A stretch of 64,000 nt of DNA from Acidobacteriota bacterium (lineage in GTDB: Bacteria; Acidobacteriota; Terriglobia; Bryobacterales; Bryobacteraceae): contig JANXMS010000480.1 in NCBI GenBank assembly GCA_025354525.1, forward strand, positions 3,590 to 67,589, given 5' to 3'. The notes beneath the pieces were generated by a model, which made no database searches, had not been told where the DNA came from, and worked only from the letters and a program-made list of their open reading frames with translations. This document shows, piece by piece, positions 20,351 to 39,847 of the stretch; the first letter of the stretch is position 1, and the number at the start of each line of letters is the position of its first letter. A program made the translations under genes and the position numbers.

Positions 20351-21910
20351 TCAGGAAAAATGAACCCATAGGCCACCCACTGCCGCCAGAATCGCCACCG
20401 TCGCCGCCACCTCCATTCGACTTCCCCGCAAATGCGCAAAATCCATCGTCAACTCCTCCACGCCCAGCTTCACCGCCGACCCCTTCGACACCACCACCAT
20501 CAACAACACACACAGCGCAAACACCCCCACACTGAAGTTTAGAAAGCTGATCGAAACCACGTCATTCCACACTCCCAGGTCCATCTTGAAGGCGTTCCGC
20601 AAAACGTCCAGCAGGAATCGCCCGCCCCCAATCACGCCCCCCACAATCAGCGTCGTGATCGCCGCCGTCGGCGTCGCCCCCTTCCACAAAATCCCCGTCA
20701 AAAACGTCGCCGCAATAGGCGCGCCCACGTAGGCCTGCACACTTTGTAAATATTGATAAACCTGATCGTTCAAGTTCCGTATAAATGGAATCCAGACCAC
20801 GGACAGCACCACGATACCCACCGTCGACCAACGTCCGAAATTCACGAGTTGCCGGTCCGTCGCTCGCGGCCTCCAGGGTTTATAAATGTCCATCGTCATC
20901 AGCGTCGAACACGAATTAAAAACGCTCGAAAGCGAACTCATCAACGCCGCCAATAACGCCGCCACCATCAGCCCCTTAATCCCCGGCGGCAACAACCGCA
21001 TCACGAGCAGGGGATACGCGTTGTCCCCGGTCACCTCAGTCGGCCACAGCGCCTTCGCGATCAACCCCGGCAGCACCAAAATAAAGACCGGCAAAATCTT
21101 CAACGCCGCGCAGAACAGCGTCCCATACCGCGCCTGCTGCAAGTTCCGCGCCGAAAGCGTCTTCTGCACAATCACCTGATCCGTACACCAGTACCAGGTC
21201 CCCAAAATGAGCGTGCCGAAAATCGTCCCCACCCACGGGTAGTTCGGGTCGCTCGCCGGCTTCACCATGCGGAAAAAGTCTGGCGGCAGCGCCGTCCGCA
21301 GCGCTTGAAATCCACCCACCTCATTCAGCCCGATCAGCGTCAGGACCACCGCCCCCACCACCAGCAACACGGCCTGAAACACATCCGTGTAGATCACCGC
21401 CGCCAACCCGCCGAAGATCGTATAGACCCCCGTCGCCACCACCAGCAAAATCGCCGAAGTCATGTAGTCCCAACCGACAATCTCCCGAATCAAAATGCCG
21501 CCCGCAAACAGCGAAACCGAAATCTTCGTGAAAACATAGGCGAATAGCGACACGCCTGTCAGGTACCACCGGCACCCCGGCGAGAACCGTTTCTCTAAAA
21601 ACTCCGGCATCGTGAACACCTTGCTCTGCAAATAGTGCGGCACAAAAAGCCAACCCAGCAACAACAAACAAATCGACGCTGACCACTCGTAGCAACCCAC
21701 CGCCAGCCCCGTCGAAGCCCCGCTCCCCGCCAGCCCAATGAAGTGTTCGCTCGATATGTTCGTCGCAAACAGCGACGCCCCCACGGCGAACCAACCCACG
21801 TTGTTTCCCGCTAGAAAATACTCTGAAGCGCTGCGCTCTTTCCGTGAATGATAAAAACCAATCCCGAACACAATCACGAAATAGACGGCTATGATGGACC
21901 AATCAAGCAT
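20351..21910 (-). CDS. Sodium:solute symporter (SSS family)
   Basis: ATG 21910: MLDWSIIAVYFVIVFGIGFYHSRKERSASEYFLAGNNVGWF, a typical SSS N-terminus. About 13 TM segments. Confidence 0.85.
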   Translation of the reverse strand: MLDWSIIAVYFVIVFGIGFYHSRKERSASEYFLAGNNVGWFAVGASLFATNISSEHFIGLAGSGASTGLAVGCYEWSASICLLLLGWLFVPHYLQSKVFTMPEFLEKRFSPGCRWYLTGVSLFAYVFTKISVSLFAGGILIREIVGWDYMTSAILLVVATGVYTIFGGLAAVIYTDVFQAVLLVVGAVVLTLIGLNEVGGFQALRTALPPDFFRMVKPASDPNYPWVGTIFGTLILGTWYWCTDQVIVQKTLSARNLQQARYGTLFCAALKILPVFILVLPGLIAKALWPTEVTGDNAYPLLVMRLLPPGIKGLMVAALLAALMSSLSSVFNSCSTLMTMDIYKPWRPRATDRQLVNFGRWSTVGIVVLSVVWIPFIRNLNDQVYQYLQSVQAYVGAPIAATFLTGILWKGATPTAAITTLIVGGVIGGGRFLLDVLRNAFKMDLGVWNDVVSISFLNFSVGVFALCVLLMVVVSKGSAVKLGVEELTMDFAHLRGSRMEVAATVAILAAVGGLWVHFS

Positions 21911-23225
21911 GGGCCATAGTCTACAGAACCGCCGCCAATTCCTCCACTCCCTCTTTCCGCAGCAGCGTCCGCCGAACGTCGTTTTCATCATGGCCGACGA
22001 CCTCGGCTACGGTGATCTCGGCTGTTACGGCCAAAAGCGCATCAAAACGCCCCACCTTGATCGCCTCGCCGCCGAAGGCATCCGCTTCACCCAGGCCTAC
22101 GCCGGATGCACCGTCTGCGCTCCCTCCCGCTCCGCCTTCATGACCGGTTATCACACCGGCCACACCCGCGTCCGTGGCAATGGCCCCAACGAGAAAGTGC
22201 TACGAGCATCTGATTTCGTGCTACCAGAGCTCTTCAAAAAAGCGGGCTACACAACCGGCATGTTCGGCAAGTGGGGCCTCGGCGGCGTCGGCTATCCGGG
22301 CTACCCTACCAAGAAAGGTTGGGACACATTCTTCGGCTTCTTTAGCCAGTCGCAGGCGCACCTGTACTACCCCGACATGCTCCTCGACGGCGACCATGCC
22401 GTCGAACTCACTGGCAACTGGGGCGGCAAAAAGAAGCAGTACGCCCCCGATCTCTTCCTCGACCGGTCCCTCAAATTCCTCGACGCCAATCAAGCCAAGC
22501 CGTTCTTCCTCTACTTCGCCTCCACCATCCCCCACGCCAACAACGAACTCGGCCGCGACTCGGGCGACGGCATCGAAATCGCTGACGACGCCCCGTACTC
22601 CGGCGAACCTTGGCCACACCTCGAACGCAAATTCGCCGCCACCATCACACGCCTAGACCGCGACGTCGGCCGCCTCCTCGATAAGCTCAAGCAACTTGGG
22701 CTCGACAGCAACACGCTCGTCTTCTTCAGCTCCGACAACGGCCCCCACCAGGAAGGCGGCCACGATCCCAAATACTTTCAATCCTCCGGCCCCCTCCGCG
22801 GCACCAAACGCAGCCTCACCGAAGGCGGCATCCGCGTCCCGTTCCTCGCCCGCTGGCCCGGCAAAATCAATCCCGGCCAAGTCTCCGATCATCCCTTCGC
22901 CTTTTGGGACATGATGGCCACCTGCGCCGAACTCACAAACCAAGCCGCCCCGAAAGATACCGACGGCCTCTCCATCCTCCCGGCCTTGACCGGCGGCAAA
23001 CCCAAGGTCCACGATTTCTTTTATTGGGAGTTCCACGAAGGCGGTTTCAAACAAGCCCTCCGCGTCGGCAACTGGAAGTACGTCAAGCCCGCTCTCTACG
23101 ATCTCTCCCAAGACGTAAGCGAAACGACAGACCTAGCCAAACAATTCCCCGAAATCGTCAGCCGCATGGAGACTCTCCTCCTCTCCGTCCGCACCGAATC
23201 CCTTGATTTCCCCGTCCGTCGCTAA
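21909..23225 (+). CDS. Arylsulfatase-family sulfatase (formylglycine type)
   Basis: PNVVFIMADDLGYGDLGCYG and CTVCAPSRSAFMTGY (C-x-P-x-R signature). Start at ATG 21909 (MGHSLQNRRQFLHSL) or ATG 21891. Either choice overlaps the divergent SSS start. Confidence 0.9.
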   Translation: MGHSLQNRRQFLHSLFPQQRPPNVVFIMADDLGYGDLGCYGQKRIKTPHLDRLAAEGIRFTQAYAGCTVCAPSRSAFMTGYHTGHTRVRGNGPNEKVLRASDFVLPELFKKAGYTTGMFGKWGLGGVGYPGYPTKKGWDTFFGFFSQSQAHLYYPDMLLDGDHAVELTGNWGGKKKQYAPDLFLDRSLKFLDANQAKPFFLYFASTIPHANNELGRDSGDGIEIADDAPYSGEPWPHLERKFAATITRLDRDVGRLLDKLKQLGLDSNTLVFFSSDNGPHQEGGHDPKYFQSSGPLRGTKRSLTEGGIRVPFLARWPGKINPGQVSDHPFAFWDMMATCAELTNQAAPKDTDGLSILPALTGGKPKVHDFFYWEFHEGGFKQALRVGNWKYVKPALYDLSQDVSETTDLAKQFPEIVSRMETLLLSVRTESLDFPVRR

Positions 23226-25420: not shown

Positions 25421-25999
25421 ATGGATTCGTCCGCACCCTCTGATATCACCCGAATGTTGTCCGCTTGGCGCGACGGTGACCCCGAGGCTTTGTCCCGCCT
25501 CACACCCCTCGTGTACGGCGAACTGCACGGTTTGGCCCAGGCCTACCTGGCACGGGAACGGCCTGGACACATTCTGCAACCCAGCGCCCTGGTCAACGAA
25601 GCGTTCCTCCGCCTCCTCGAATGGCAGCCAGACCACTGGCAGAACCGGGCCCATTTTTTTGGAGTTTCGGCCACCCTGATGCGGCGGATTTTGGTGCAGT
25701 CCGCACGGGAACAACACACTCTGAAACGCGGCCAGGGTGCCCTCCGGGTGTCGCTTTCAGAAGCGAGCGACGTGGCGGCGCAACAGCCCGAAGGCGCCGA
25801 TGTCCTTGCGCTCGATAGCGCCTTGGACTCCCTCGAAAAACTCAATCCCCGCCAAGCTCGCACCATCGAACTGCGCTTTTTCGGCGGATTGAGCCTGGAA
25901 GATACCGCGGAAGTGATGGGGACTTCCGTCAGCACCGTGCGCCGCGATTTCCGCATGGCCCAAGCCTGGCTCTATCAACAGTTGAGCCGGCCAGCATGA
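25421..25999 (+). CDS. ECF sigma factor (Sigma70_ECF/PF07638, TIGR02999-like)
   Basis: DITRMLSAWRDGDPEALSRLTPLVYGELHGLAQAYL, and region 4 ELRFFGGLSLEDTAEVMGTSVSTVRRDFRMAQAWL. The stop overlaps the kinase ATG (ATGA at 25996-25999). Confidence 0.85.
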   Translation: MDSSAPSDITRMLSAWRDGDPEALSRLTPLVYGELHGLAQAYLARERPGHILQPSALVNEAFLRLLEWQPDHWQNRAHFFGVSATLMRRILVQSAREQHTLKRGQGALRVSLSEASDVAAQQPEGADVLALDSALDSLEKLNPRQARTIELRFFGGLSLEDTAEVMGTSVSTVRRDFRMAQAWLYQQLSRPA

Positions 26000-28773
26000 C
26001 TCCGGAACGCTACGAACGCATCGGCGAACTCTTCGATGCCGCCCTCGACCTTGCTCCGGATGATCGCGACGGCTACCTGTCACAAGCCTGCGCCGGCGAC
26101 GAAACGCTGCGGGCGGAGGTCGTCCTGTTGCTGGCCAACCACCAACGCGCCAGGAATTTTCTCGCGCCCTCCGAGCCGCTCATCGATTCCATCGGACCCT
26201 ACAAAATCCAGCGCCAACTCGGCGAAGGCGGCATGGGCACCGTCTACCTGGCCCTGCAGGAAACGCCCCTCCGCCGCGAAGTAGCTCTGAAAGTGATAAA
26301 ACCCGGCATGGGCTCGAAAGCCATCATTGCCCGCTTTGAAGGCGAACGCCGGGCGCTTGCCTTGATGGACCATCCGAACATCGCCCATGTGCTGGATGCG
26401 GGAGCCACCGCCCAGGGCCTGCCCTACTTCGTCATGGAGTTCGTCGACGGCTTGCCAGTAACGCGCTACTGCGAGCAGCACAATTTCAGCGTCCGGCAAC
26501 GCATCGAACTCTTCATCCCAATCTGCCAAGCCATCCACCACGCCCACCAGAAGGGTGTCATCCACCGCGACATCAAACCCTCAAACGTCCTGGTGAAACA
26601 GGTGGAGGGCCTCGCGATCCCCAAAGTAATCGACTTCGGTTTGGCCAAGGCGCTCCACCCGGAAACGACCGGCGATACGATGATGACCAACGTCGGAGTC
26701 ATCCTGGGCACCTTGCAATATATGAGCCCGGAACAAGCCCAAACTGGTGGAAGTGATATTGACACCCGAAGCGACGTCTTCTCCCTCGGAGCGCTGCTCT
26801 ACGAACTCCTCACCGGGTCCACGCCTCTCGATGCCAAACGCCTCGCCCTGGAAAACTATCACGCCTTGCTGGAACGCGTGTGCGACGAAGAGCCCGTCGC
26901 GCCCAGCGTCCGCCGCCGCGAAAGCGCCGCTTCTGCCCTCTCCGGCACGCTTGACCGCGAACTCGACTGGATCCCTCTCAAGGCCCTCGAAAAAGAACGC
27001 GACCGCCGCTATGAATCGGTCAACGGCATGGTCCGCGATCTGGAACGCTATCTGGCCGGCGAGCCCGTCGAAGCCGCGCCCCCGTCCCGTGCCTATCGAG
27101 CCCGCAAGTTTGTCCGCCGCAACCGACTCAGCTTCGCCGTCGCCTCGGCCTTCTTGCTCCTGCTCGTCGCGGCCGTCGTCGTCAGCGCCTCCCTGGCCGT
27201 TCGCGCCCGCCAGGCGGAACAGGAAGCCTCCGCCGTCAACACCTTCCTGCGCAGGGATGTCCTCGCCCAAGCCGATCCCCGCAATCAGGCCAAGCCCAAC
27301 ACCCCCCCGGATGCCAACCTCACCGTACGCACCGCCCTCGACCGGGCCGCCCGCGGCATCGCCGGCAAATTCCCGCGCGAGCCGCTCGTCGACGCCGCCA
27401 TTCGCGACTCGATCGCCCACGCCTACCAAGGCCTGGGCATCTATCCCAAAGCCGAGGAGCAGGCCCAGCGCGCCCTGGAATTGCGGCGCAACACGCTGGG
27501 AGAAAGTCACCGGCTGACGCTCGAAAGCCGGCAAATGCTCGCCATGCTCGTCTCCGTCCAGGGCCGCTATCGGGATTCCGAGCCCATGTTCACGGCTCTG
27601 TTGGCCGATTGCCGCAAAAGCTTGGGGCCGGACGATCCAGACACGCTGGAGGCTTGGGCCGCACTCGCCCGGTCTTATAATTTGCAGGGCAAATTTGAAC
27701 CGGCTCTCGAACAATTCAGGCAAGTAGAAGCGGCTTATTCCCGGGTGCTTGGCGCGGAGCATCCAAGCACGCTCAGCACCATGGAAAGCCGCGGCTCCGT
27801 CTACTTCGCACAAAGAAAATTGGATCAGGCCGAGGCGTTGCAGGCCAAGGTGTTGGCGGCGCGGAAGCGGACTCTTAGCGAGGAGCATCCAGACACCCTA
27901 CGCGCCATGACAAGTCTGGCGGCGACCTATCATGTCCAGGTCCGGTACCCTCTGGCCGAGGAGTTGTACCGCCGCGCTTTGGCGATTCAACGCCGGGTAA
28001 ACGGAGTGCCCCACCCCGAAACGTTGATCACCATGTTCAATTTGGGCACGCTCCTCACCAACCAGGCACGGCATGCCGAAGCGCTCACTTTGCTCGAAGA
28101 AAACCGCGCCGCGCGCGGAGCCGTCTATCCGCCCGATCATCCCCGCACGTTGCGCCTGCTCGTGAACTTGTCCTATCTCTACGGTAGATTGGGGCGGGTC
28201 GCGGACGAATTGCGCATGTTGGAAGAAGCGTACGCCGGGCAACGGCGCGTCCTCGGCCCCGACCATCCAGACACCTTGACGTCGATGGTCTCCCTCGCCG
28301 ATCTCCATGCCAAGTCGCAGCCAGACCGTGCCGAAGCCTTGGCTCGCGACGCCCTGAAAGGGCTGCGCGGACGCTTCGGACCAACGCATCCGGACACTGT
28401 CTCGGCGGTGTGTTCGCTGGCGAAGCTGCTGCAAGCGCGCAAGCAATATGCCGAGGCCGAACGGATCATCCGCGAGTCCCTCGGGGCGCAGCAGGGTCAG
28501 GCCGGAACTCCGGGCTACCGGCTTCGCCTGATGAGCCAACTGGGTGAGGTCCTCGCTGCGCAACCCGACCGTTGGAACGAAGCTGAGCCGCTCCTCCTCG
28601 AAGCGTACGAAGCGATGACACCCGGCAAGAACTTGGAAGAGATTGAGGTTTTCGAGGAAGCGGGTAAGCGCGTGGTGGACTTCTACACCGCCAAAGGCCT
28701 CCCGGCCAAGGCTGCCGAGTGGCGGCGACGCGTGGAAGCGGACGTTCTAAAAAGCAAGACGATTCTTCAATAG
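25996..28773 (+). CDS. Ser/Thr protein kinase with one TM segment and a long TPR region
   Basis: Kinase motifs GEGGMGTVYLA, VALKVIK, HRDIKPSNVL, DFGLAK, YMSPEQ. TM segment LSFAVASAFLLLLVAAVVVSASLAV. More than 10 TPR-like repeats (HPDTL/HPSTL periodicity). Confidence 0.9.
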   Translation: MTPERYERIGELFDAALDLAPDDRDGYLSQACAGDETLRAEVVLLLANHQRARNFLAPSEPLIDSIGPYKIQRQLGEGGMGTVYLALQETPLRREVALKVIKPGMGSKAIIARFEGERRALALMDHPNIAHVLDAGATAQGLPYFVMEFVDGLPVTRYCEQHNFSVRQRIELFIPICQAIHHAHQKGVIHRDIKPSNVLVKQVEGLAIPKVIDFGLAKALHPETTGDTMMTNVGVILGTLQYMSPEQAQTGGSDIDTRSDVFSLGALLYELLTGSTPLDAKRLALENYHALLERVCDEEPVAPSVRRRESAASALSGTLDRELDWIPLKALEKERDRRYESVNGMVRDLERYLAGEPVEAAPPSRAYRARKFVRRNRLSFAVASAFLLLLVAAVVVSASLAVRARQAEQEASAVNTFLRRDVLAQADPRNQAKPNTPPDANLTVRTALDRAARGIAGKFPREPLVDAAIRDSIAHAYQGLGIYPKAEEQAQRALELRRNTLGESHRLTLESRQMLAMLVSVQGRYRDSEPMFTALLADCRKSLGPDDPDTLEAWAALARSYNLQGKFEPALEQFRQVEAAYSRVLGAEHPSTLSTMESRGSVYFAQRKLDQAEALQAKVLAARKRTLSEEHPDTLRAMTSLAATYHVQVRYPLAEELYRRALAIQRRVNGVPHPETLITMFNLGTLLTNQARHAEALTLLEENRAARGAVYPPDHPRTLRLLVNLSYLYGRLGRVADELRMLEEAYAGQRRVLGPDHPDTLTSMVSLADLHAKSQPDRAEALARDALKGLRGRFGPTHPDTVSAVCSLAKLLQARKQYAEAERIIRESLGAQQGQAGTPGYRLRLMSQLGEVLAAQPDRWNEAEPLLLEAYEAMTPGKNLEEIEVFEEAGKRVVDFYTAKGLPAKAAEWRRRVEADVLKSKTILQ

Positions 28774-28839: not shown

Positions 28840-29812
28840 TTGTACTCGGCGTTGACACTCGCCTGCTGCGGCTTGAAAAAATCAAAATGCCCCCATCGAC
28901 ATCAAGGCCGCCGAAGGCATCCGCTTCACCCAGGCTTACGCCGACTGTACCGTCTGCGCCCCCTCCCGCTCCGCCTTCATGACCGGCTATCATAAGGGCC
29001 ACAATGAGAAAGTGCTACGCTCGTCAGATTTCGTGCCACCCGAGCTCTTCAAAATAGCGGGTTACAGAACCGGCATGTTCGGCAAGTGGGGCCTCGGAGG
29101 CGTCGGCTATGGGGGCTACCCCACCCAAAAAGGTTGGGACACCTTCGTCGGCCTCTTCAGCCGGCCGCAGGCCCTCACGTACTACCCCGACATGCTTCTC
29201 GGCGGCGACCTGCCCTCGAACTCCAGGGCAACTGGGGCGGCGAAAAGAAGCCGTGCGCCCCCGCTCTCTACTTCGCCTCCACCATCCCCCACGCCAACAA
29301 CGAGCTCGGCCGCGACTCGGGTGACGGCATCGAAATGCCCCCTACTCCGGATAACCCTGGCCCCGCCGCGACCGCGACATCGCCCGCCTTCTCGATAATC
29401 TCAAGCAACTCGGCCTCGACAACAACACCCTCGTGTTCCTCCGGTCCCTTGCGCGGCACCAAGCGGAGCCTCACCGAAGGCGGCATCCGCGTCCCCTTCC
29501 TCGCCCCGCTGGCCCGGCAAGATCAACCGCAACCTCCTGGGAAATGATGGCCACCTGTGCCGAACTCACAAACCAAGCCGTTCCGAAAGATACTGACGGC
29601 CTCTCGATTCCGCCCGCCCTTGCCGGCGGCAAACCAAAGACTTTTATGGGGAGTTCCACAAAGGCGGTTTCAAACACGCCCTCTTCGATCTCGCGCAGAA
29701 CCTCAACGAAACCACCGATCTAGCCAAGCAATTCCCCGAAATCGCCAGCCGCATGAGGACCCTCCTCCACTCCGTCCGCACTAAGTCCGCCGATTTCCCT
29801 ACTCGCAGATAA
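28840..29812 (+). pseudogene. Decayed paralog of the 21909..23225 sulfatase (5'-truncated, many internal deletions and frameshifts)
   Basis: Long near-identical DNA runs are shared with the intact copy (ctcccgctccgccttcatgaccgg, ggcatgttcggcaagtggggcctcgg, ctacttcgcctccaccatcccccacgccaacaacga, ctcaccgaaggcggcatccgcgtccc). Coding pieces are split over all three + frames. About 970 nt remain against 1317-1335 nt in the intact copy. The start coordinate is approximate. Confidence 0.85.
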
Positions 29813-30090: not shown

Positions 30091-30474
30091 ATGCTGACAC
30101 TCCGGCCTGCCCAAATGCAGGTCTTTGAGGCGATGGCCTTGCAGAGCTTTCTCGAAGCCTCTGCCAAGCACATCCGGTCTCGACTCCCGGGCTGTTGTCT
30201 CCAACTCTCCGAGCCCGCCCTCGTCCAGCTCCTCGAAAAAGCCTTCGAAGAAGCTTCCGCCTTCGGCGTTGACCAACGCGAGGATCTAGTCCCGTTCTTC
30301 GACCTAGTCGCGGCCCACGGTCTGGCCTTCTCCACCACCCCGAACTTGTCCTGGGCCGCCCCCCTCCTCGCCGACCCCGCGCTCTCCGGTGACGTCAAAA
30401 TCGCTTTCCTTTACGAACGCCTCCCCCTCCGCCTCCACCCTTCCACGATCTCCCAAATGGCACCGCCGAAATGA
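30091..30474 (+). CDS. Hypothetical small helical protein (first gene of the orphan operon)
   Basis: 127 aa from ATG 30091 (MLTLRPAQMQVFEAMALQSFLEASAKHIRSRLP...). The ORF is open back to ATG 29854, but that part is the degenerate duplicate plus a Pro-rich linker. No family name recognised. Confidence 0.5.
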   Translation: MLTLRPAQMQVFEAMALQSFLEASAKHIRSRLPGCCLQLSEPALVQLLEKAFEEASAFGVDQREDLVPFFDLVAAHGLAFSTTPNLSWAAPLLADPALSGDVKIAFLYERLPLRLHPSTISQMAPPK

Positions 30475-31766
30475 GTCAAACGCTCGCCGTTAAACGCTGC
30501 GAAAAGATGACCGCCACAGTCAAACTCTGCGCCGAAGCCCTCCGCCCCAATGATCATGGGGAAGACATCATCGGCGTCCCCGGAATCGTCATGGAACTCA
30601 TTCGCAACGGCAATCCCGTCGAATCCATCACCACCACCGCCTCGGGTTTAGTCGCATTCGCCTCCGTCGGCATTACCCCTGCCAACATGGGAAACTACTC
30701 CGTCCGCGCCATCGTCGGCCCCGGTGTCGTGGGTACGTACGCCTTCCGCGTCGATCCCTCCCAGAACGCCGAACGTGGCAACCTGTTCAACAAAACCGGC
30801 AAAGCCTACGTCCATAAAATCAGCTTCTACTTCACCACCGGTTGGGTCGCCGTCCGGGTTCGCAACGCGACCGGGGCCCTTCTCACGGGGGTAACCGTCT
30901 CCCTAACCTCCCCCATCGGCCCCGCCATCCTCAAAACCCTCGCCAAGGCCGACCTCCTCGCCGATGGCTCCTACCGCCTCGAACCCACCCCCGCCGGCAA
31001 CTATCAAATCTCCTTTCCCGATTTCGATCAGGACTCCTGGGCTGTCAACACCGCCCCTCCACCCGTCCGGCCCCTCAACTACTTCGCCCGCCCGAAACAC
31101 GAAGATCCCCCCGGCCCCGGCCATACCGTCGTCGTCGGCGATTGCGCCTGGTCGCTCGCCGTTACTTACGCCGTCACGGAGGACGCGATCTGGGCCCACG
31201 TCCCCAACCAAGCCCTCACCGCCACCTACCCAAACCGATACACCCTCCTTCCCGGCCAGACGGTCCAAATTCCCCGCCGCCCCAAATCTGTTACCTGCGC
31301 GAGCAGCGCCTGTCACGATTTCCTCATTCCTGATCCGCCCACTCGGGAACTCATCGTCCGTCTCGTCGACTGGGGCCAGCCAGCTCCCATCGGCCTAGTC
31401 GGGACTGTCGCAATCACCAATCACCCCGACCTCGCCGTCACCACCGAAGCCGGAGGCGTCCTCAAAATTCCCATCCCCTTCGGTGCCACCGCCGCCAAGC
31501 TCACTCTCCCCGAATTCGGCCTCAAAGAGTACACTCTTCAACTCGGTCATCTCGCCCCTATCGAATCTCCCGAAGGCGTCCGCCAAAGGCTCTCAAACCT
31601 CGGTCTGTTCGTTGATCCTCCGGATGTCCTCGACAGACCCGCCGCCCTCCTCCAAGCGGTTAACGGCTTCCAAAAGCTCAAAACCATTCCCCTGGTCGAC
31701 CCCGATCCCCTCGGCAAAGTCAACTCAGCCACCAGCGATGCCCTAGTCGCCGCCTGCGGATCGTAA
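30471..31766 (+). CDS. Hypothetical protein with a LysM-like motif and a C-terminal peptidoglycan-binding-like domain
   Basis: 431 aa, ATGA overlap with the upstream gene, no signal peptide. Two beta-sandwich-like segments (..GNYSVRAIVGP, ..AGNYQISFPDFD). LysM-like HTVVVGDCAWSLAVTYAVTEDAIWAHVPN..LLPGQTVQIP. PG_binding_1-like EGVRQRLSNLGLFVD..AVNGFQKL. Confidence 0.6.
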   Translation: MSQTLAVKRCEKMTATVKLCAEALRPNDHGEDIIGVPGIVMELIRNGNPVESITTTASGLVAFASVGITPANMGNYSVRAIVGPGVVGTYAFRVDPSQNAERGNLFNKTGKAYVHKISFYFTTGWVAVRVRNATGALLTGVTVSLTSPIGPAILKTLAKADLLADGSYRLEPTPAGNYQISFPDFDQDSWAVNTAPPPVRPLNYFARPKHEDPPGPGHTVVVGDCAWSLAVTYAVTEDAIWAHVPNQALTATYPNRYTLLPGQTVQIPRRPKSVTCASSACHDFLIPDPPTRELIVRLVDWGQPAPIGLVGTVAITNHPDLAVTTEAGGVLKIPIPFGATAAKLTLPEFGLKEYTLQLGHLAPIESPEGVRQRLSNLGLFVDPPDVLDRPAALLQAVNGFQKLKTIPLVDPDPLGKVNSATSDALVAACGS

Positions 31767-31770
31767 CCGA

Positions 31771-33963
31771 ATGACCTACAAGCTCGACAACGACAACACT
31801 CCCAATAAGTTTTCCGCACTCTACAGCGTATCCATCGCTCGGTTGATCCAACTGAATCCCGTCCACGCCCTCGCCCTCGGCGGGGACCCCGATGGCGAAC
31901 TCGTCGGCATCGACAAACTGGAAGTCGGCGGCGTCGCGATCCTGGGCTTCGGGAAAGCCATCAATCAAGAGCTCCTGGATAAATACGGCGTCAACACCAT
32001 TGCCGCCTTTAAAGACCTGAACGACCGTCATGCCGACGTCCTTCAACGCTGTTTCGACGCTCCCAGGGCGATGGGCAAGCGGGCTCCCTACGATGTCAAA
32101 AACCTTATCGTCGTTCACGACGGCACCCCGCCCGTCGTTGTTCCCCTCGGTCCTGTCAGCGACCCCAACCCCACGTTCGAATGGCTCTTCTACGAGACCC
32201 GTGCCAACGCCACGGTCTACCAGAAAGAACCCCTCGTGCTCGCCTACGGCCTCTACGCTGCCCCTCTCGACCACCGCGCCGAAGTCGTCGCCTCTCGCGA
32301 ACTACCCAAGATTCTCGCCGATGCGTTCTTCCCCGGAATGTCCGTCTCCGAAGTCCAAGCCTTCTCCGATCAATCCTGCCGCTGGCGAGTTCTCAACGCC
32401 GCCGCGCCCATCCCCCTCTCCCCTCCCAACTCGCCCGCCTCCCAACTAATCTCTCGCACCGAAGCCGTCATCCATTCCCCCCAGATGGTCGTGTTCCCGT
32501 ATAACTATTTCGCCAACGATACCTTAACTCACTCCATCGGCACCACCGTCGAAACCGACATCGTGCCCGGTCCGGCCTACCGTCTCAAAAAATGCTGGCC
32601 GCTCTGGGAAACCGCTTCCCGCTCCAGCGTCTCCATCCTTGAACCCACTGCCATCGCCGATCTCGCTCCGTCCAAACGCCTCGATACCCAGTGGCCGTTC
32701 CGCTCGAAACTCCCGGTTCCTGGCGGAGCCATCCCCGCCAAATTCGTCGGTGAAATCTTCGACTTCGCTGGCTTTAAAAACGACAACTGCTACTCCGTCA
32801 AAACCGGCGTCCGCTGGCTTGGCAATAAGCCCCAAGGCCACAAGGATAGCTCCGATAAAGACGTTCTCGAATCCAACGCCCTCCTCGCCAGCATGAGGAG
32901 CGACTGGGCCGAATACGTCGAAGAACAAATCGGCCCTTCTCCGTTTCTCATCGTCCTGCGTGAACTCCTCACCGTCACGTACAAGAACGCCACGCCCGGC
33001 AGAGACTACCGCGACGGCTTCCAAATCCGCGACCTTCGCCCCCTCACCACCGACAAAAGTTACTTTCCCCCCCTCAGCATCCCCTTCGGCGGTCAGGAGT
33101 TCTTTACCAAATTCCAGTCCCTCAACCCCCAATCCATCCATACCTACGAATCGTTCTGGGGCGAACACTACGCCGCCGCTCTCGGTCGCGCCAAAGCCGA
33201 ATTCCTCCTCCGCTACGGCCTCCAACTCACCACCCCTAACGCCCAGAACATGCTCATCGAGTTCGACCGGGCTACCTTCATCCCCACCGGCCGCATCGTC
33301 ATCCGCGACATCGGCGATGCCAAACTCCACTCCGAAGTCATCGCCCGCCTCGGCACGGGCCAACCCGTCATCGAATACGAACTCCGCAACCCCGCCCGTC
33401 CCGGCTACCTCCCCGCCCAAACCAACAACGCTGACCGCGCTCTCGACGACAAACCGCATGACCGCCTCAGCATGTACCCCCTCGATACCCGCACCCACTG
33501 GCACCAGTACTCCTCCTTCGGGGAACAATACGGTCGCCTCCAACTCCCTGACAAGACCATGACCACCGTCCGCTGGGGCCGCGCCCACTTCACCGCCTAT
33601 GTCGACCACCTCGCTACCGTCCTTGAAGAACCCGACTTGCGCGTCCCCGTCTTCGGCCAGGAAGCCTGGGATAATCTCCTCGCCCCCTCCCACCCCATCA
33701 ATCCAAAAGTGGAAACCTACCTCCTCAAGGACTACCGCGCCAGGGCGCTACAACTACGAGACAACGCCATTCCCTCCTACGTCGCCACCGTGGCCGAAAT
33801 CACCCCAGCCATCCTCGACCGCATGATCCAAGACAAAGTCATCGACGACAACGCCGCCGGCATCGTCGAGCGAACCCTCGAAGCCTTCACCGACGAAATC
33901 CTCCACGCTAAGCTTTGCGCGACCACCGTGCTCGACAAAATCAAAACGAAGTGGGTCCGTTAA
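31771..33963 (+). CDS. Hypothetical 730-aa protein (LysM-like N-terminus; C-terminal half with a kinase/NIS-synthetase-like loop pair)
   Basis: It starts 4 nt after the previous stop and has no signal peptide. YKLDNDNTPNKFSALYSVSIARLIQLNP..LEVGGVAIL (LysM-like). LLRYGLQLTTPNAQNMLIEFD..TGRIVIRDIGDAKLH. No other signature recognised. Confidence 0.6.
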   Translation: MTYKLDNDNTPNKFSALYSVSIARLIQLNPVHALALGGDPDGELVGIDKLEVGGVAILGFGKAINQELLDKYGVNTIAAFKDLNDRHADVLQRCFDAPRAMGKRAPYDVKNLIVVHDGTPPVVVPLGPVSDPNPTFEWLFYETRANATVYQKEPLVLAYGLYAAPLDHRAEVVASRELPKILADAFFPGMSVSEVQAFSDQSCRWRVLNAAAPIPLSPPNSPASQLISRTEAVIHSPQMVVFPYNYFANDTLTHSIGTTVETDIVPGPAYRLKKCWPLWETASRSSVSILEPTAIADLAPSKRLDTQWPFRSKLPVPGGAIPAKFVGEIFDFAGFKNDNCYSVKTGVRWLGNKPQGHKDSSDKDVLESNALLASMRSDWAEYVEEQIGPSPFLIVLRELLTVTYKNATPGRDYRDGFQIRDLRPLTTDKSYFPPLSIPFGGQEFFTKFQSLNPQSIHTYESFWGEHYAAALGRAKAEFLLRYGLQLTTPNAQNMLIEFDRATFIPTGRIVIRDIGDAKLHSEVIARLGTGQPVIEYELRNPARPGYLPAQTNNADRALDDKPHDRLSMYPLDTRTHWHQYSSFGEQYGRLQLPDKTMTTVRWGRAHFTAYVDHLATVLEEPDLRVPVFGQEAWDNLLAPSHPINPKVETYLLKDYRARALQLRDNAIPSYVATVAEITPAILDRMIQDKVIDDNAAGIVERTLEAFTDEILHAKLCATTVLDKIKTKWVR

Positions 33964-37714: not shown

Positions 37715-39847
37715 TTAGCGGCGGAGGAGGACGAGGACGCCCGTGGCGAGCAAGCCGAGGAGGAAAAGCGCCGCGCCGAGGTAGACGCTGCCGGGGCGGA
37801 AGCGGAACTCGACTTGATGGGTGCCGGTGGGGACGACGACTCCGCGGATGGCTCCGTAGGCTTCCCAGATTGGCGCGGGGCGGCCGTCGACGGTGGCTTG
37901 CCAACCGGGGTAGTAGGAGTCGGCCAGGATCACCATGCCGGTGCAGCGCATTGCGGCGGCGAGGCGGACGCGGTCCGGGTTTCGGCTCATCAGCTTCACG
38001 TCGTCGCCGTCGCAGGTCTCGAGGGCCGGGGCGTCGCCGAGCAGGACGGCTTGGCGGTGGAAATCGATGGGCTGCACTTGGATGCGGTCGCGGAGGTCGG
38101 GGCCGTCCGAAGCCCGGATGATTTCGTGGACGCTCCAGGCACGGGGCATGGGGTCAGGATTAGCGAAGACCTTCACTCCGCTTCGGCCTTCGAAGAGCGA
38201 GACTTGACCGGCGCGGGCGGGTTGCTTGCCGAGATAGTGGGTGACCGCGAAAAGAGACTGCGAACGGTCGGTATGCAGTTCGGCGCGGAGGAGATTCACG
38301 GGGGCACCGGCGACGTAGCCTTGGATGGCGTCGACGCCATGATAGTCGCCGTAGTTGATGGGAACATCATCTTCTTTGACGGCGATGCGGACGGGGGAGA
38401 CGCGTTCGGCGGCACGGAGGAAGTCGGCGATATCCTTGTTTTCTTCGAGACGTTTGAGGAAGCGGTTCTGGTCGTCTCGATAGCGAGAGGAATACGTTGC
38501 GGTCGTGACGCCGTGGAGTTCGGTGAGAGCTACTGTGATCCAGACAGCCGCCAGGGCGGTGGGGGTTAGCTTCGCGGATAGAGAGGCGGCTAGGGCTAGA
38601 GCGAGGAAGCCGGAGAGGAGCAGGCGGTCGTCGAGGGCGGGGTGGCCGATGGCCCAGCCGGTGATGAGAATGCCTACGAGAAGGAGACCTCGCTGGAGGA
38701 GGGGCGGGAAGGGACGAGAACGGAGTTCATCCCAGCCGTAAGCGGCGAGGAGGCAGAGGCCGAGGTTGAATAAATGCAGAGCGCGGACGGGGACGCGGGC
38801 CTTGCCGAGGCCGGGGAGGAGCGAGTACAGCGTGCCGTGGAAAGGGGTGGCCGCGCCAAGGGCGAAGAGGAGCGAGACGGCGGTGGCGACGGCGATCCAG
38901 CGGACGCGGGGCGTTTGGTTAGCGGTCGATAAACCGACGAGCGCGAGGGCAACGATAGCGAGGCCGAGGAAGGGGGCGCAGTCGGCGTAGCGGTCGGCGC
39001 TGGGGAGGAAAGTGGTTAGAAGGCCGCGGGCAGGAAGGGAGTAGACGGTGGCGATGGTGTAGGGGATTCTATCGTCCCAGCCGACGGGCTCGGCGGTGCC
39101 GACCCACCGCTGGGAGAGGCGGCCGAATTCGACGGTGGGCAGCACTTGGAGGGCGGCGACGAGGCCGGCGATCAGAACGGCTATGAACGCGAGCGGGAGG
39201 GCGGCTCTGCGATGCCAGATGGCGATGGCCCAGATGGTCAGGAAGAGAAACGAGACGAGAAGGGGGATTTCGTGATGGCCGCTGAGCCAGGCGAGGCCGA
39301 GGAAGAGACCGGCGCAGGCGGCGCTGGCGTAGGGGCGGCGGCCTTCGAGGGCACGTGAAAGGTAGAGCAGGACGAGGGGCGTGAAGATGGCTCCGGCGGC
39401 GACGTCGAGCCAGGCGACAGTGCCGAGGAAGCCGCCGCAGCCGAAGCCGATGGCGGCGAGGAGGGCACCGGTTCGGCTGAGGCCCCAATCGCGGCAGAGG
39501 GCGTAGCAGGCGAGGGCGGCGAGGGCGTGGAGGAGGACCCAGTAGCCGTTGAGATAGGCGTATTGGAGGTAGCCGTGGTCGAGGGGGAGGAGGAGGAAGA
39601 GGAAGGTTAGGGGGAAGAGGGGGCCGGGTTGGGTCTGGCCGATGAGCGATTGGCCGGCCCAGATAGAGGGGTCCCAAAGGGGGAAGTGGCCGAGGTGGAA
39701 TTCGCGGGCCTGGAACTGGAGGCGAGGAATTTCGAGGTAACACATGTCTGGATGATCGAACCAGACAAATTCGTTCGTCAGGGTGAGCTTCCAGAAGAAG
39801 ACGAGGACGAGAAGGAAGAGCCCTGCGGGGACCAGTTTGTTTTTCAT
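37715..39847 (-). CDS. YfhO-family polytopic membrane protein (putative glycosyl/lipid-linked transferase)
   Basis: 710 aa, more than 12 TM helices plus a C-terminal soluble domain. N-terminus FWKLTLTNEFVWFDHPDMCYLEIPRLQFQAREFHLGHFPLWDPSIWAGQSL is YfhO-like. Confidence 0.7.
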   Translation of the reverse strand: MKNKLVPAGLFLLVLVFFWKLTLTNEFVWFDHPDMCYLEIPRLQFQAREFHLGHFPLWDPSIWAGQSLIGQTQPGPLFPLTFLFLLLPLDHGYLQYAYLNGYWVLLHALAALACYALCRDWGLSRTGALLAAIGFGCGGFLGTVAWLDVAAGAIFTPLVLLYLSRALEGRRPYASAACAGLFLGLAWLSGHHEIPLLVSFLFLTIWAIAIWHRRAALPLAFIAVLIAGLVAALQVLPTVEFGRLSQRWVGTAEPVGWDDRIPYTIATVYSLPARGLLTTFLPSADRYADCAPFLGLAIVALALVGLSTANQTPRVRWIAVATAVSLLFALGAATPFHGTLYSLLPGLGKARVPVRALHLFNLGLCLLAAYGWDELRSRPFPPLLQRGLLLVGILITGWAIGHPALDDRLLLSGFLALALAASLSAKLTPTALAAVWITVALTELHGVTTATYSSRYRDDQNRFLKRLEENKDIADFLRAAERVSPVRIAVKEDDVPINYGDYHGVDAIQGYVAGAPVNLLRAELHTDRSQSLFAVTHYLGKQPARAGQVSLFEGRSGVKVFANPDPMPRAWSVHEIIRASDGPDLRDRIQVQPIDFHRQAVLLGDAPALETCDGDDVKLMSRNPDRVRLAAAMRCTGMVILADSYYPGWQATVDGRPAPIWEAYGAIRGVVVPTGTHQVEFRFRPGSVYLGAALFLLGLLATGVLVLLRR

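Follow-up and report, generated by a model that had tools for sequence, protein, structure and literature searches.

The operon

This study concerns three co-directional open reading frames (ORFs), here called ORF1, ORF2 and ORF3 (Table 1), and their possible relation to type VI secretion system (T6SS) cargo. They are located in a 64,000-nucleotide stretch of an Acidobacteriota genome (GenBank assembly GCA_025354525.1, contig JANXMS010000480.1, positions 3,590 to 67,589), referred to as the window. The genes are packed exactly as described in a first-pass annotation made from the letters of the sequence. ORF1 and ORF2 share an ATGA overlap at 30471-30474, and ORF2 is separated from ORF3 by a gap of four nucleotides (TAA, ccga, ATG; 31764-31773), both junctions being confirmed on the window sequence. 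All three ORFs are intact, and ORF3 retains every residue that is invariant in its family.

No model from Pfam, NCBIfam or PADLOC scored above threshold on ORF1, ORF2 or ORF3. Weak Pfam matches were seen to beta-sandwich domains and LysM in ORF2, and to the first third of the FhuF domain in ORF3. The first-pass annotation could place none of the three in a named family, and this holds for Pfam and NCBIfam, but the genes have many relatives: the ORF1 family is large and the ORF3 family extends across several phyla. A total of 95 homologues of ORF3, all unannotated, were found in Acidobacteriota, Myxococcota, Bdellovibrionota and scattered other phyla. ORF2-like genes lie upstream of them in about 20 loci, and an exhaustive phmmer search with ORF1 returned 1,316 cluster representatives at E<=1e-3. 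Because of these homologues elsewhere, ORF1, ORF2 and ORF3 are regarded as three intact, translationally coupled genes and not as chance ORFs.

Fold and candidate active site of ORF3

An AlphaFold2 model of ORF3, built on an alignment of 64 homologues, reached a predicted local distance difference test (pLDDT) score of 83.6 and a predicted template modelling (pTM) score of 0.81. When this model was compared with the PDB using Foldseek, a check proposed together with the first-pass annotation, the top 43 matches were all synthetases of nonribosomal peptide synthetase-independent siderophores (NIS), with a probability of 1.0 and 500-590 aligned columns. They include IucC, NcdF, DesD, DfoC, AsbB, AcsD, SbnC and IucA. 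The identity to these structures is 10-14%, with Foldseek TM scores of 0.33-0.43. The model thus assigns ORF3 the three-domain fold of the NIS synthetases, interrupted by insertions between the motifs and preceded by an extra N-terminal extension that these enzymes do not have. Protein kinases follow in the list at E > 3e-3. The nucleotide-binding part of the model weakly resembles protein-kinase-like enzymes such as SelO, YopO and viral Ser/Thr kinases (E 3e-3 to 2e-2), but NIS synthetases match far more strongly, and no kinase Pfam domain and no HRD or DFG-type motif was identified in ORF3. The first-pass annotation had described a loop pair of kinase or NIS-synthetase type in this protein. 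The high-probability fold matches point to NIS synthetases only, and the loops align with the Mg-ATP motifs of IucA.

At the level of sequence, the relationship is at the edge of detection. FhuF, which is the C-terminal domain of IucA/IucC enzymes, matches ORF3 at residues 461-517 with 16.3 bits against a cut-off of 25.2, and is found below threshold in 16 of the 64 family members. The IucA_IucC domain (PF04183) has no match in any of the 64, and a search of PDB sequences with the family profile gave no NIS chain, only chance matches. Using hhalign, with IucA and IucC from pLVPK as reference sequences, ORF3 462-521 could be aligned with IucA 398-451 (E=0.005). In this alignment N490 is paired with H425, Q492 with Q427, N493 with N428 and D513 with D445.

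Inspection of the 64-sequence alignment revealed the invariant columns S283, R284, K344, K363, R420, P438, G472, G483, N490, Q492, N493, R512 and D516. The two loops singled out in the first-pass annotation, present as TTPNAQN and RDIGD, contain the invariant N490, Q492, N493, R512 and D516. According to a structural study of DesD (PMC9356276), the ligand set of NIS synthetases consists of S-x-R, K, R, R, H-x-E/Q-N and D, and the H-x-E/Q-N and D residues are the alpha-phosphate/Mg ligands conserved in all NIS synthetases. The core motif of ORF3, Y-G-L-x..x-Q-N...R-D, is aligned with this Mg/alpha-phosphate site, and D516 is proposed as the counterpart of the acidic residue that binds the second Mg. 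Further upstream, the TASRS motif resembles the TSSRS of IucA and may be the counterpart of the S-x-R-T motif that holds the beta/gamma-phosphates, and the invariant Lys and Arg residues occur in the same order as the phosphate ligands of NIS synthetases. The position of the adenine-stacking, catalytic His of NIS synthetases is, in contrast, occupied by an invariant Asn in the ORF3 family. Judging from the model and these motifs, ORF3 probably binds nucleotide and Mg in the way of NIS synthetases.

The N-terminal extension of ORF3 is variable. It is LysM-like or beta-sandwich-like in homologues and degenerate in the window copy, so the earlier statement that ORF3 opens with LysM applies to some of its homologues, where a clear LysM-like motif is present, whereas no such motif is detectable in ORF3 itself. 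A LysM match was obtained for two of 64 homologues, and modules resembling LysM or a beta-sandwich stand at the start of several long homologues (as seen in the N-terminal motifs of P0003, P0004 and P0042). Some of the long homologues also carry C-terminal Ig-like domains, which sets them further apart from NIS synthetases.

NIS synthetases are cytoplasmic biosynthetic enzymes, and ORF3 could in principle be an ordinary gene for siderophore biosynthesis, given that its fold matches only NIS synthetases and that weak FhuF matches recur through its family. This is highly improbable. None of the 64 members has an IucA_IucC match, FhuF never reaches its threshold, a sequence search with the family profile gave no NIS synthetase, and the conserved His has been replaced. 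Furthermore, no receptor, precursor or export genes of a siderophore pathway were found in the window or in the loci of relatives, where the conserved neighbours are instead LysM/PG_binding_1, DUF4123 and VgrG genes, and members of the family are exported, by the Sec route or in association with VgrG. Because ORF3 has neither the family sequence features nor the gene context of NIS enzymes, it is not considered a siderophore synthetase, and siderophore synthesis was rejected as largely refuted on both counts.

Gene context in related genomes

Loci (L numbers) were fetched around the ORF3 homologues and searched by tblastn. The ORF2-like gene lies directly upstream of a long ORF3 homologue, either overlapping it or ending 6-30 nt before it, and such pairs are found in Acidobacteriota, Myxococcota, Bacteroidota, Planctomycetota and Ignavibacteria. 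Iterative searches revealed an ORF1-like gene upstream of the ORF2-like gene in nine loci (L001, L004/5, L033, L035, L041, L052, L053, L054). A DUF4123 gene is located immediately 5' of the ORF1-like gene in L033, L035, L041, L052 and L054, and in L033, L035, L041 and L054 the gene of about 730 amino acids (aa) located 5' of DUF4123 encodes VgrG (E=1.2e-120 to P. aeruginosa VgrG1). VgrG is also encoded directly upstream of the ORF2-like/ORF3-like pair in a genome of Phycisphaerae (Planctomycetota; L038). In a longer view of the L035 contig, from Pyrinomonadales (L068), the gene order is TssG-ClpV-VgrG-DUF4123-ORF1-like-134-aa beta-sandwich protein-LysM/PG_binding_1-ORF3-like, followed by a gene-free gap of 1.1 kb and a second VgrG island. 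In Sorangium cellulosum, an ORF3 homologue is found inside a T6SS cluster, between DotU/SLT and TssB/TssC. The three genes are therefore co-conserved in relatives, and are accompanied by T6SS genes in several loci, as the neighbourhood check suggested with the first-pass annotation was meant to find. The operon of the window is probably an orphan copy of this module.

The adaptors of the DUF4123 (Tap) type have been described as two-lobed: the VgrG C-terminus is bound by a conserved alpha/beta N-lobe, and the effector is recognised by a C-lobe that is variable and all-helical (Colautti et al. 2024, PMC11582642). Five effector families were reported to co-occur with DUF4123, namely Rhs, Tle, alpha/beta hydrolase, MIX and MATE, none of which is NIS-like (PMC11582642). 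The loci described here resemble these islands in the order VgrG, DUF4123, cargo (L033, L035/L068, L041, L054), in cargo without signal peptides and in having an all-helical module beside the DUF4123 lobe. They differ in that a gene of its own often encodes the helical lobe (the ORF1 family), two to four polypeptides make up the cargo, the catalytic fold is new to effectors and an immunity gene was not found. The copy in the window differs further by lacking VgrG and DUF4123. The arrangement is in good agreement with the earlier suggestions that an effector is delivered without Sec, by a phage-tail-like route, and that ORF1 is a chaperone, as relatives place the module behind VgrG and DUF4123 and the ORF1 fold occurs fused to DUF4123. 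Two further readings of the first-pass annotation, a polymorphic toxin and a wall-modifying ligase, stay hypothetical.

Alternatively, ORF2 and ORF3 may be accessory proteins of the T6SS and not toxins, helping the apparatus through the peptidoglycan of the producer itself, or fixing it there, or aiding assembly of the spike, with target cells unaffected. The Sorangium homologue, which is surrounded by T6SS core genes and immediately follows an SLT lytic transglycosylase with an N-terminal hydrophobic segment, would fit such a role, as would the failure to find an immunity gene and the recurrence of LysM and PG_binding_1 proteins in the other vgrG island of L068, where the downstream protein is a different one. 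The slot after VgrG and Tap is, however, the position of cargo effectors (PMC11582642), and the T6SS itself is the sole route by which these proteins could reach the producer's periplasm. In addition, Sec-exported and T6SS-independent family members exist and the module also occurs as an orphan far from T6SS core genes. We therefore give this explanation little credence.

The second island of L068 (13359-20460) encodes VgrG, a 202-aa LysM protein, a 174-aa PG_binding_1 protein, a 409-aa protein of unknown type, two HEAT-repeat proteins and PAAR. Since LysM and PG_binding_1 accessories are found here as well, they accompany more than one type of cargo. In a Brocadiaceae contig (L032, 4675-7998), the LysM/PG_binding_1 gene and the ORF3-like gene are divergently oriented, and DUF4123 is encoded after the ORF3-like gene and not before it; the module may have been rearranged, or the assembly may be at fault. 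The proteins of about 500 aa encoded upstream in L001 and L004 and the upstream genes of L018 gave no relatives and no PDB matches.

ORF1 and its helical family

ORF1 is a stand-alone member of a large, unnamed family of predicted helical proteins, for which no match was found in Pfam or the PDB. Most members are proteins of about 120 aa or tandem duplications of about 250 aa. A word-indexed search with ORF1 returned ORF1 alone and the exhaustive search was needed to recover the family, whose consensus from the 1,316 representatives equals the sequence pattern given for this protein in the first-pass annotation.

Two members, P0219 and P0179, are fusions in which DUF4123 is followed by an ORF1-like domain. 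ORF1 matches solely the part C-terminal to DUF4123, and DUF4123 itself was not detected in ORF1. In L064 such a fusion is found directly upstream of a peptidyl-arginine-deiminase-like protein. In L065-L067 a DUF4123 gene is followed by an ORF1-family gene, 39% identical to ORF1, and by a gene for a 1070-aa protein, all tightly packed, and in L031 the LysM/PG_binding_1 partner carries the ORF1-like domain as an N-terminal fusion. Because of the DUF4123 fusions, the gene order and the two-lobe architecture of Tap (PMC11582642), the best fit for ORF1 would be a stand-alone helical C-lobe of the Tap type. We propose it as a candidate effector-recognition lobe or co-adaptor.

The first-pass annotation had also considered ORF1 as an immunity protein. 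ORF1 looks more like an adaptor lobe than an immunity protein, and a role as toxin-specific immunity protein was rejected, as the ORF1 family precedes three unrelated types of cargo.

The database copy of ORF1, P0099, has 119 aa and apparently starts at Met9. The start at 30091 is nevertheless supported, since R5 and Q8, upstream of Met9, are invariant in the family alignment. Some members of the family have unusual surroundings or architectures. The fusion gene followed by PAD_M/PAD genes in L064 (10001-12800) marks a candidate deiminase effector of the T6SS. The string in L065 (9044-13591) consists of a 139-aa gene, DUF4123, the ORF1-family gene and the 1070-aa protein, which has no Pfam domain and is a candidate new cargo effector. 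Finally, P0108 (1312 aa) contains 13 ORF1-like stretches, and a match to the Ig-like domain Big_12 probably belongs to this protein.

ORF2, the putative cell-wall-binding partner

Comparison with its relatives indicates that ORF2 is a modular LysM and PG_binding_1 protein. A word-indexed search found only two close homologues, P0097 and P0098 (46-49% identity), which carry PF13620 and PF01471. A broader set of 16 partner homologues could be aligned. The smallest of these partners, at about 210 aa, start with a textbook LysM, continue with the beta-rich middle domain and end with PG_binding_1, and have no signal peptide.

LysM was detected in 5 of the 16 partners at E<0.01 and its motif is evident in the partner alignment, the profile of which matches the solved LysM domains of SafA, YaaH and MltD (E 0.008-0.16). 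In the window copy LysM scores 15-17 bits, below the cut-off of 20.9. The LysM claimed for ORF2 in the first-pass annotation is thus clear in the family and sub-threshold in ORF2 itself. The C-terminal PG_binding_1 domain claimed there is well borne out by the relatives, being present in 15 of the 16 partners (best E=4.3e-14) and in the two closest homologues. ORF2 is the one partner without a match at E=0.01, yet it is aligned throughout. PDB matches of the partner profile include SleB (4.6e-6), an L,D-transpeptidase and the VgrG3 effector (4nso).

The N-terminal part of ORF2 is related to a protein from another cargo locus. BLASTP aligned ORF2 1-119 with residues 1-122 of the 1070-aa protein of L065 (28% identity, E=3e-10). 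The similarity begins at residue 1 and the two proteins are otherwise unrelated; no relationship was found between the L065 protein and ORF3. Because this module is common to ORF2 and the L065 protein, which is likewise encoded downstream of an ORF1-family gene, we propose residues 1-120 of ORF2 as a candidate loading or recognition domain bound by the adaptor. The second beta-sandwich of ORF2 is encoded by a separate upstream gene (113-134 aa) in L004, L033 and L035/L068.

In VgrG3 of Vibrio cholerae the spike protein itself combines a peptidoglycan-binding domain with a glycoside hydrolase. The module described here has in common with it a PG_binding_1 domain on a protein that the T6SS would deliver, as reflected in the profile match to 4nso, but here the binding domains reside on a separate protein without recognisable hydrolase, and the enzyme has a ligase-type fold. 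LysM and PG_binding_1 domains on proteins without signal peptides are also typical of endolysins, and the C-terminus of the partners matches endolysin PHROGs, so a phage-derived lysis or virion-associated cell-wall module, combining endolysin-like binding domains with an enzyme, was considered. The endolysin PHROG matches are limited to the binding domain, however, and ORF1-3 match no PHROG. In a viral structure library the ORF3 model gave only weak protein-kinase matches, and no phage genes were present in the neighbourhoods examined. A phage lysis cassette was accordingly rejected as very improbable, there being no link to phage in PHROGs, the viral fold library or the neighbourhoods.

Table 1. 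Genes, domains and motifs of the operon, with the upstream pseudogene, in window coordinates
Feature	Position	Strand	Length or basis
ORF1	30091..30474	+	127 aa
ORF2	30471..31766	+	431 aa
ORF2 res 1-120, helix with two Cys and first beta-sandwich	30471..30830	+	BLASTP to L065 protein; weak SdrD_B match at 28-89
ORF2 res 125-190, second beta-sandwich, CarboxypepD_reg-like	30843..31040	+	Pfam PF13620, E=1.4e-5, sub-threshold
ORF2 res 218-268, LysM, divergent in window copy	31122..31274	+	Pfam LysM 15-17 bits, partner alignment
ORF2 res 290-357, beta-rich middle domain	31338..31541	+	conserved in all partner proteins; only segment at pLDDT 64-83
ORF2 res 363-431, PG_binding_1-type helical bundle	31557..31763	+	PG_binding_1 in partner homologues, profile matches
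ORF3	31771..33963	+	730 aa
ORF3 res 1-135, variable N-terminal extension	31771..32175	+	pLDDT <50 at 54-64 and 87-109
ORF3 res 136-730, enzyme core, predicted NIS-synthetase (IucA/IucC) fold	32176..33963	+	AlphaFold2 model and Foldseek
TASRS motif, T281-S285, S283 and R284 invariant	32611..32625	+	resembles TSSRS of IucA
N490-A-Q492-N493	33238..33249	+	aligns with IucA H425-Q-Q427-N428, alpha-phosphate/Mg site
R512-D513-I-G-D516	33304..33318	+	D513 aligns with Mg-binding Asp445 of IucA
Sulfatase pseudogene, frameshifted	28895..29810	+	tblastn and blastn against intact paralogue at 21891-23225

Export and site of action

Signal peptides were judged by inspection and a crude hydrophobicity rule, with no dedicated predictor. 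By these means, no signal peptide was seen at the N-termini of ORF1, ORF2 and ORF3, consistent with what the first-pass annotation had stated for ORF2 and ORF3. The ORF3 family is divided in this respect. Of the 25 homologues below 500 aa, most of which come from Bdellovibrionota, 20 have a Sec-type signal peptide, compared with one of the 70 long homologues, the other 69 being without. Since the short homologues are Sec-exported, the family appears to work outside the cytoplasm of the producer. As the family is exported by either route and accompanied by wall-binding modules, these sequence features point to the envelope of another cell as its site of action. Short homologues (P0047-P0087) have a single conserved Cys located 3-4 residues past the predicted cleavage site (AAPAC, ARYAC, LPVC). 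The surrounding sequence is not a canonical lipobox, and these proteins are otherwise almost free of cysteine.

A cytoplasmic role has to be weighed against this. ORF3 could be a housekeeping or accessory wall enzyme, an ATP-dependent ligase of NIS type acting on the producer's own peptidoglycan precursors or recycled muropeptides, with ORF2 presenting the substrate through LysM and PG_binding_1 and ORF1 as regulator. The NIS fold with its retained candidate Mg/phosphate ligands, the absence of signal peptides from all three ORFs, the failure to find an immunity gene and a window without T6SS genes are in line with this, as are the homologue located in a glycosyltransferase/YfhO polysaccharide cluster and the YfhO-like gene 3.7 kb downstream in the window. 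We nevertheless regard it as unlikely. Several genomes place the module after VgrG and DUF4123, next to TssG/ClpV, and the ORF1 family adjoins or is fused to DUF4123 ahead of unrelated cargo. Neither the Sec export of the short homologues, nor the Ig-like surface domains on some long ones, nor the patchy, accessory distribution is what would be expected of such an enzyme.

A probable orphan T6SS cargo module

Because relatives encode the module behind VgrG and DUF4123, beside TssG/ClpV, we favour the explanation that ORF1-ORF2-ORF3 is an orphan copy of a conserved T6SS cargo module with a catalytic effector of NIS fold, at a probability of roughly 0.6. Based on the fusions and the published work on Tap, the DUF4123 lobe would bind the C-terminus of VgrG and ORF1 would be the separate helical lobe that recognises the cargo, presumably through the N-terminal ~120 residues of ORF2. 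ORF2 would also supply the wall-binding modules (beta-sandwiches, LysM and PG_binding_1), and ORF3 would be the catalytic effector that travels with it. In ORF3, the invariant Ser, Arg and Lys residues are candidate phosphate ligands beside N-x-Q-N and R-D-x-x-D. The most likely chemistry, which we infer from the fold and motifs only, would be the activation and ligation of a carboxylate, dependent on Mg and a nucleotide or pyrophosphate, on a wall-related molecule of the target cell. For the module in the window, delivery would require VgrG and adaptor genes in another part of the genome.

Several observations weigh against this explanation. No VgrG, DUF4123 or T6SS core genes are present in the 64-kb window, and among the about 20 loci with an ORF2-like/ORF3-like pair, no more than about 7 showed T6SS genes; several of the other pair-bearing loci are truncated or have unrelated neighbours, and further members of the ORF3 family are located in contexts other than T6SS, in a polysaccharide cluster or alone. 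A candidate immunity gene following ORF3 was not found in the window or in L068; the proteins may have a non-toxic accessory role, or their target may be absent from the producer. As for the structural evidence, the helical structure of ORF1 is a prediction, and the AlphaFold model of ORF2 is unreliable (pLDDT 47.5 from 3 sequences). In ORF3, the hhalign alignment of the upstream ATP-site segment with IucA/IucC was not significant, and the change from His to Asn, seen in the alignment, casts doubt on the binding of adenine. ATP would moreover be unexpected in the periplasm, to which peptidoglycan binding and Sec export point, and this conflicts with an adenylation of the NIS type. The Sec export of the short homologues thus puts the ATP-dependent chemistry of the family in doubt. 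The forms delivered by T6SS might act in the cytoplasm of the target, the Mg/phosphate site might hold another phosphorylated ligand, in keeping with the missing adenine-stacking His, or ATP might be present in that particular setting.

The operon probably represents a new effector family within the known VgrG-Tap-cargo arrangement, and no report of an effector with a siderophore-synthetase fold was found in the searchable literature. A wider reading, which we put forward tentatively and consider possible though doubtful, is that the ORF3 family constitutes a branch of the IucA/IucC fold, the first one not devoted to siderophores, and is an exported enzyme attacking the envelopes of other cells, with ORF1 and the ORF2 N-terminus as a split adaptor/loading pair. 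The enzyme would be fired by the T6SS, or secreted by Sec in the predatory Bdellovibrionota, and the LysM/PG_binding_1 partners would guide ORF3-like enzymes to the wall. It may ligate an amine onto a carboxylate of peptidoglycan precursors, or, without ATP, act on a wall precursor with a pyrophosphate link, for example lipid II. The ORF1 family and the N-terminal module of ORF2 would then be an unnamed, widespread split-adaptor/loading-domain pair for DUF4123-dependent cargo.

New enzymology and antibacterial mechanisms can be found in abundance among T6SS effectors. An effector with a siderophore-synthetase fold would take the IucA/IucC fold beyond iron metabolism, and would raise the puzzle of what a seemingly nucleotide-dependent ligase does in a compartment without ATP. 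A testable role is provided for three unnamed families, which are the ORF1 family, the N-terminal ~120 residues of ORF2 and the LysM-beta-PG_binding_1 partner, and these could be used as genomic markers when T6SS cargo is sought in little-studied phyla such as Acidobacteriota and Myxococcota.

Surroundings of the operon

In the window the operon is flanked by unrelated genes. The slot 5' of ORF1, where relatives have VgrG and DUF4123, is occupied by a sulfatase pseudogene. The first-pass annotation had recognised a decayed sulfatase here, and it is a genuine frameshifted paralogue of the gene at 21891-23225, with 77% amino-acid identity in the first block, sequence distributed over three frames and the first ~55 codons missing. 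The gene directly 3' of ORF3 encodes a pyrroloquinoline quinone (PQQ) dehydrogenase.

A Ser/Thr protein kinase with TPR repeats is encoded near ORF3 in the window (25996-28773). Ser/Thr kinase genes were also found near ORF3-family genes in four unrelated loci (L037 4976-6973, L050 6325-7275, L014 7709-7999 and L015 2834-3472). This proximity could reflect a regulatory link, or chance in kinase-rich phyla. Furthermore, the YfhO-like gene downstream of ORF3 (37715-39847) encodes a membrane glycosyltransferase, and a YfhO-like gene within 4 kb of an ORF3-family gene is present in a Myxococcaceae genome too (L055 4765-7056), where the ORF3 homologue is located within a glycosyltransferase/epimerase cluster.

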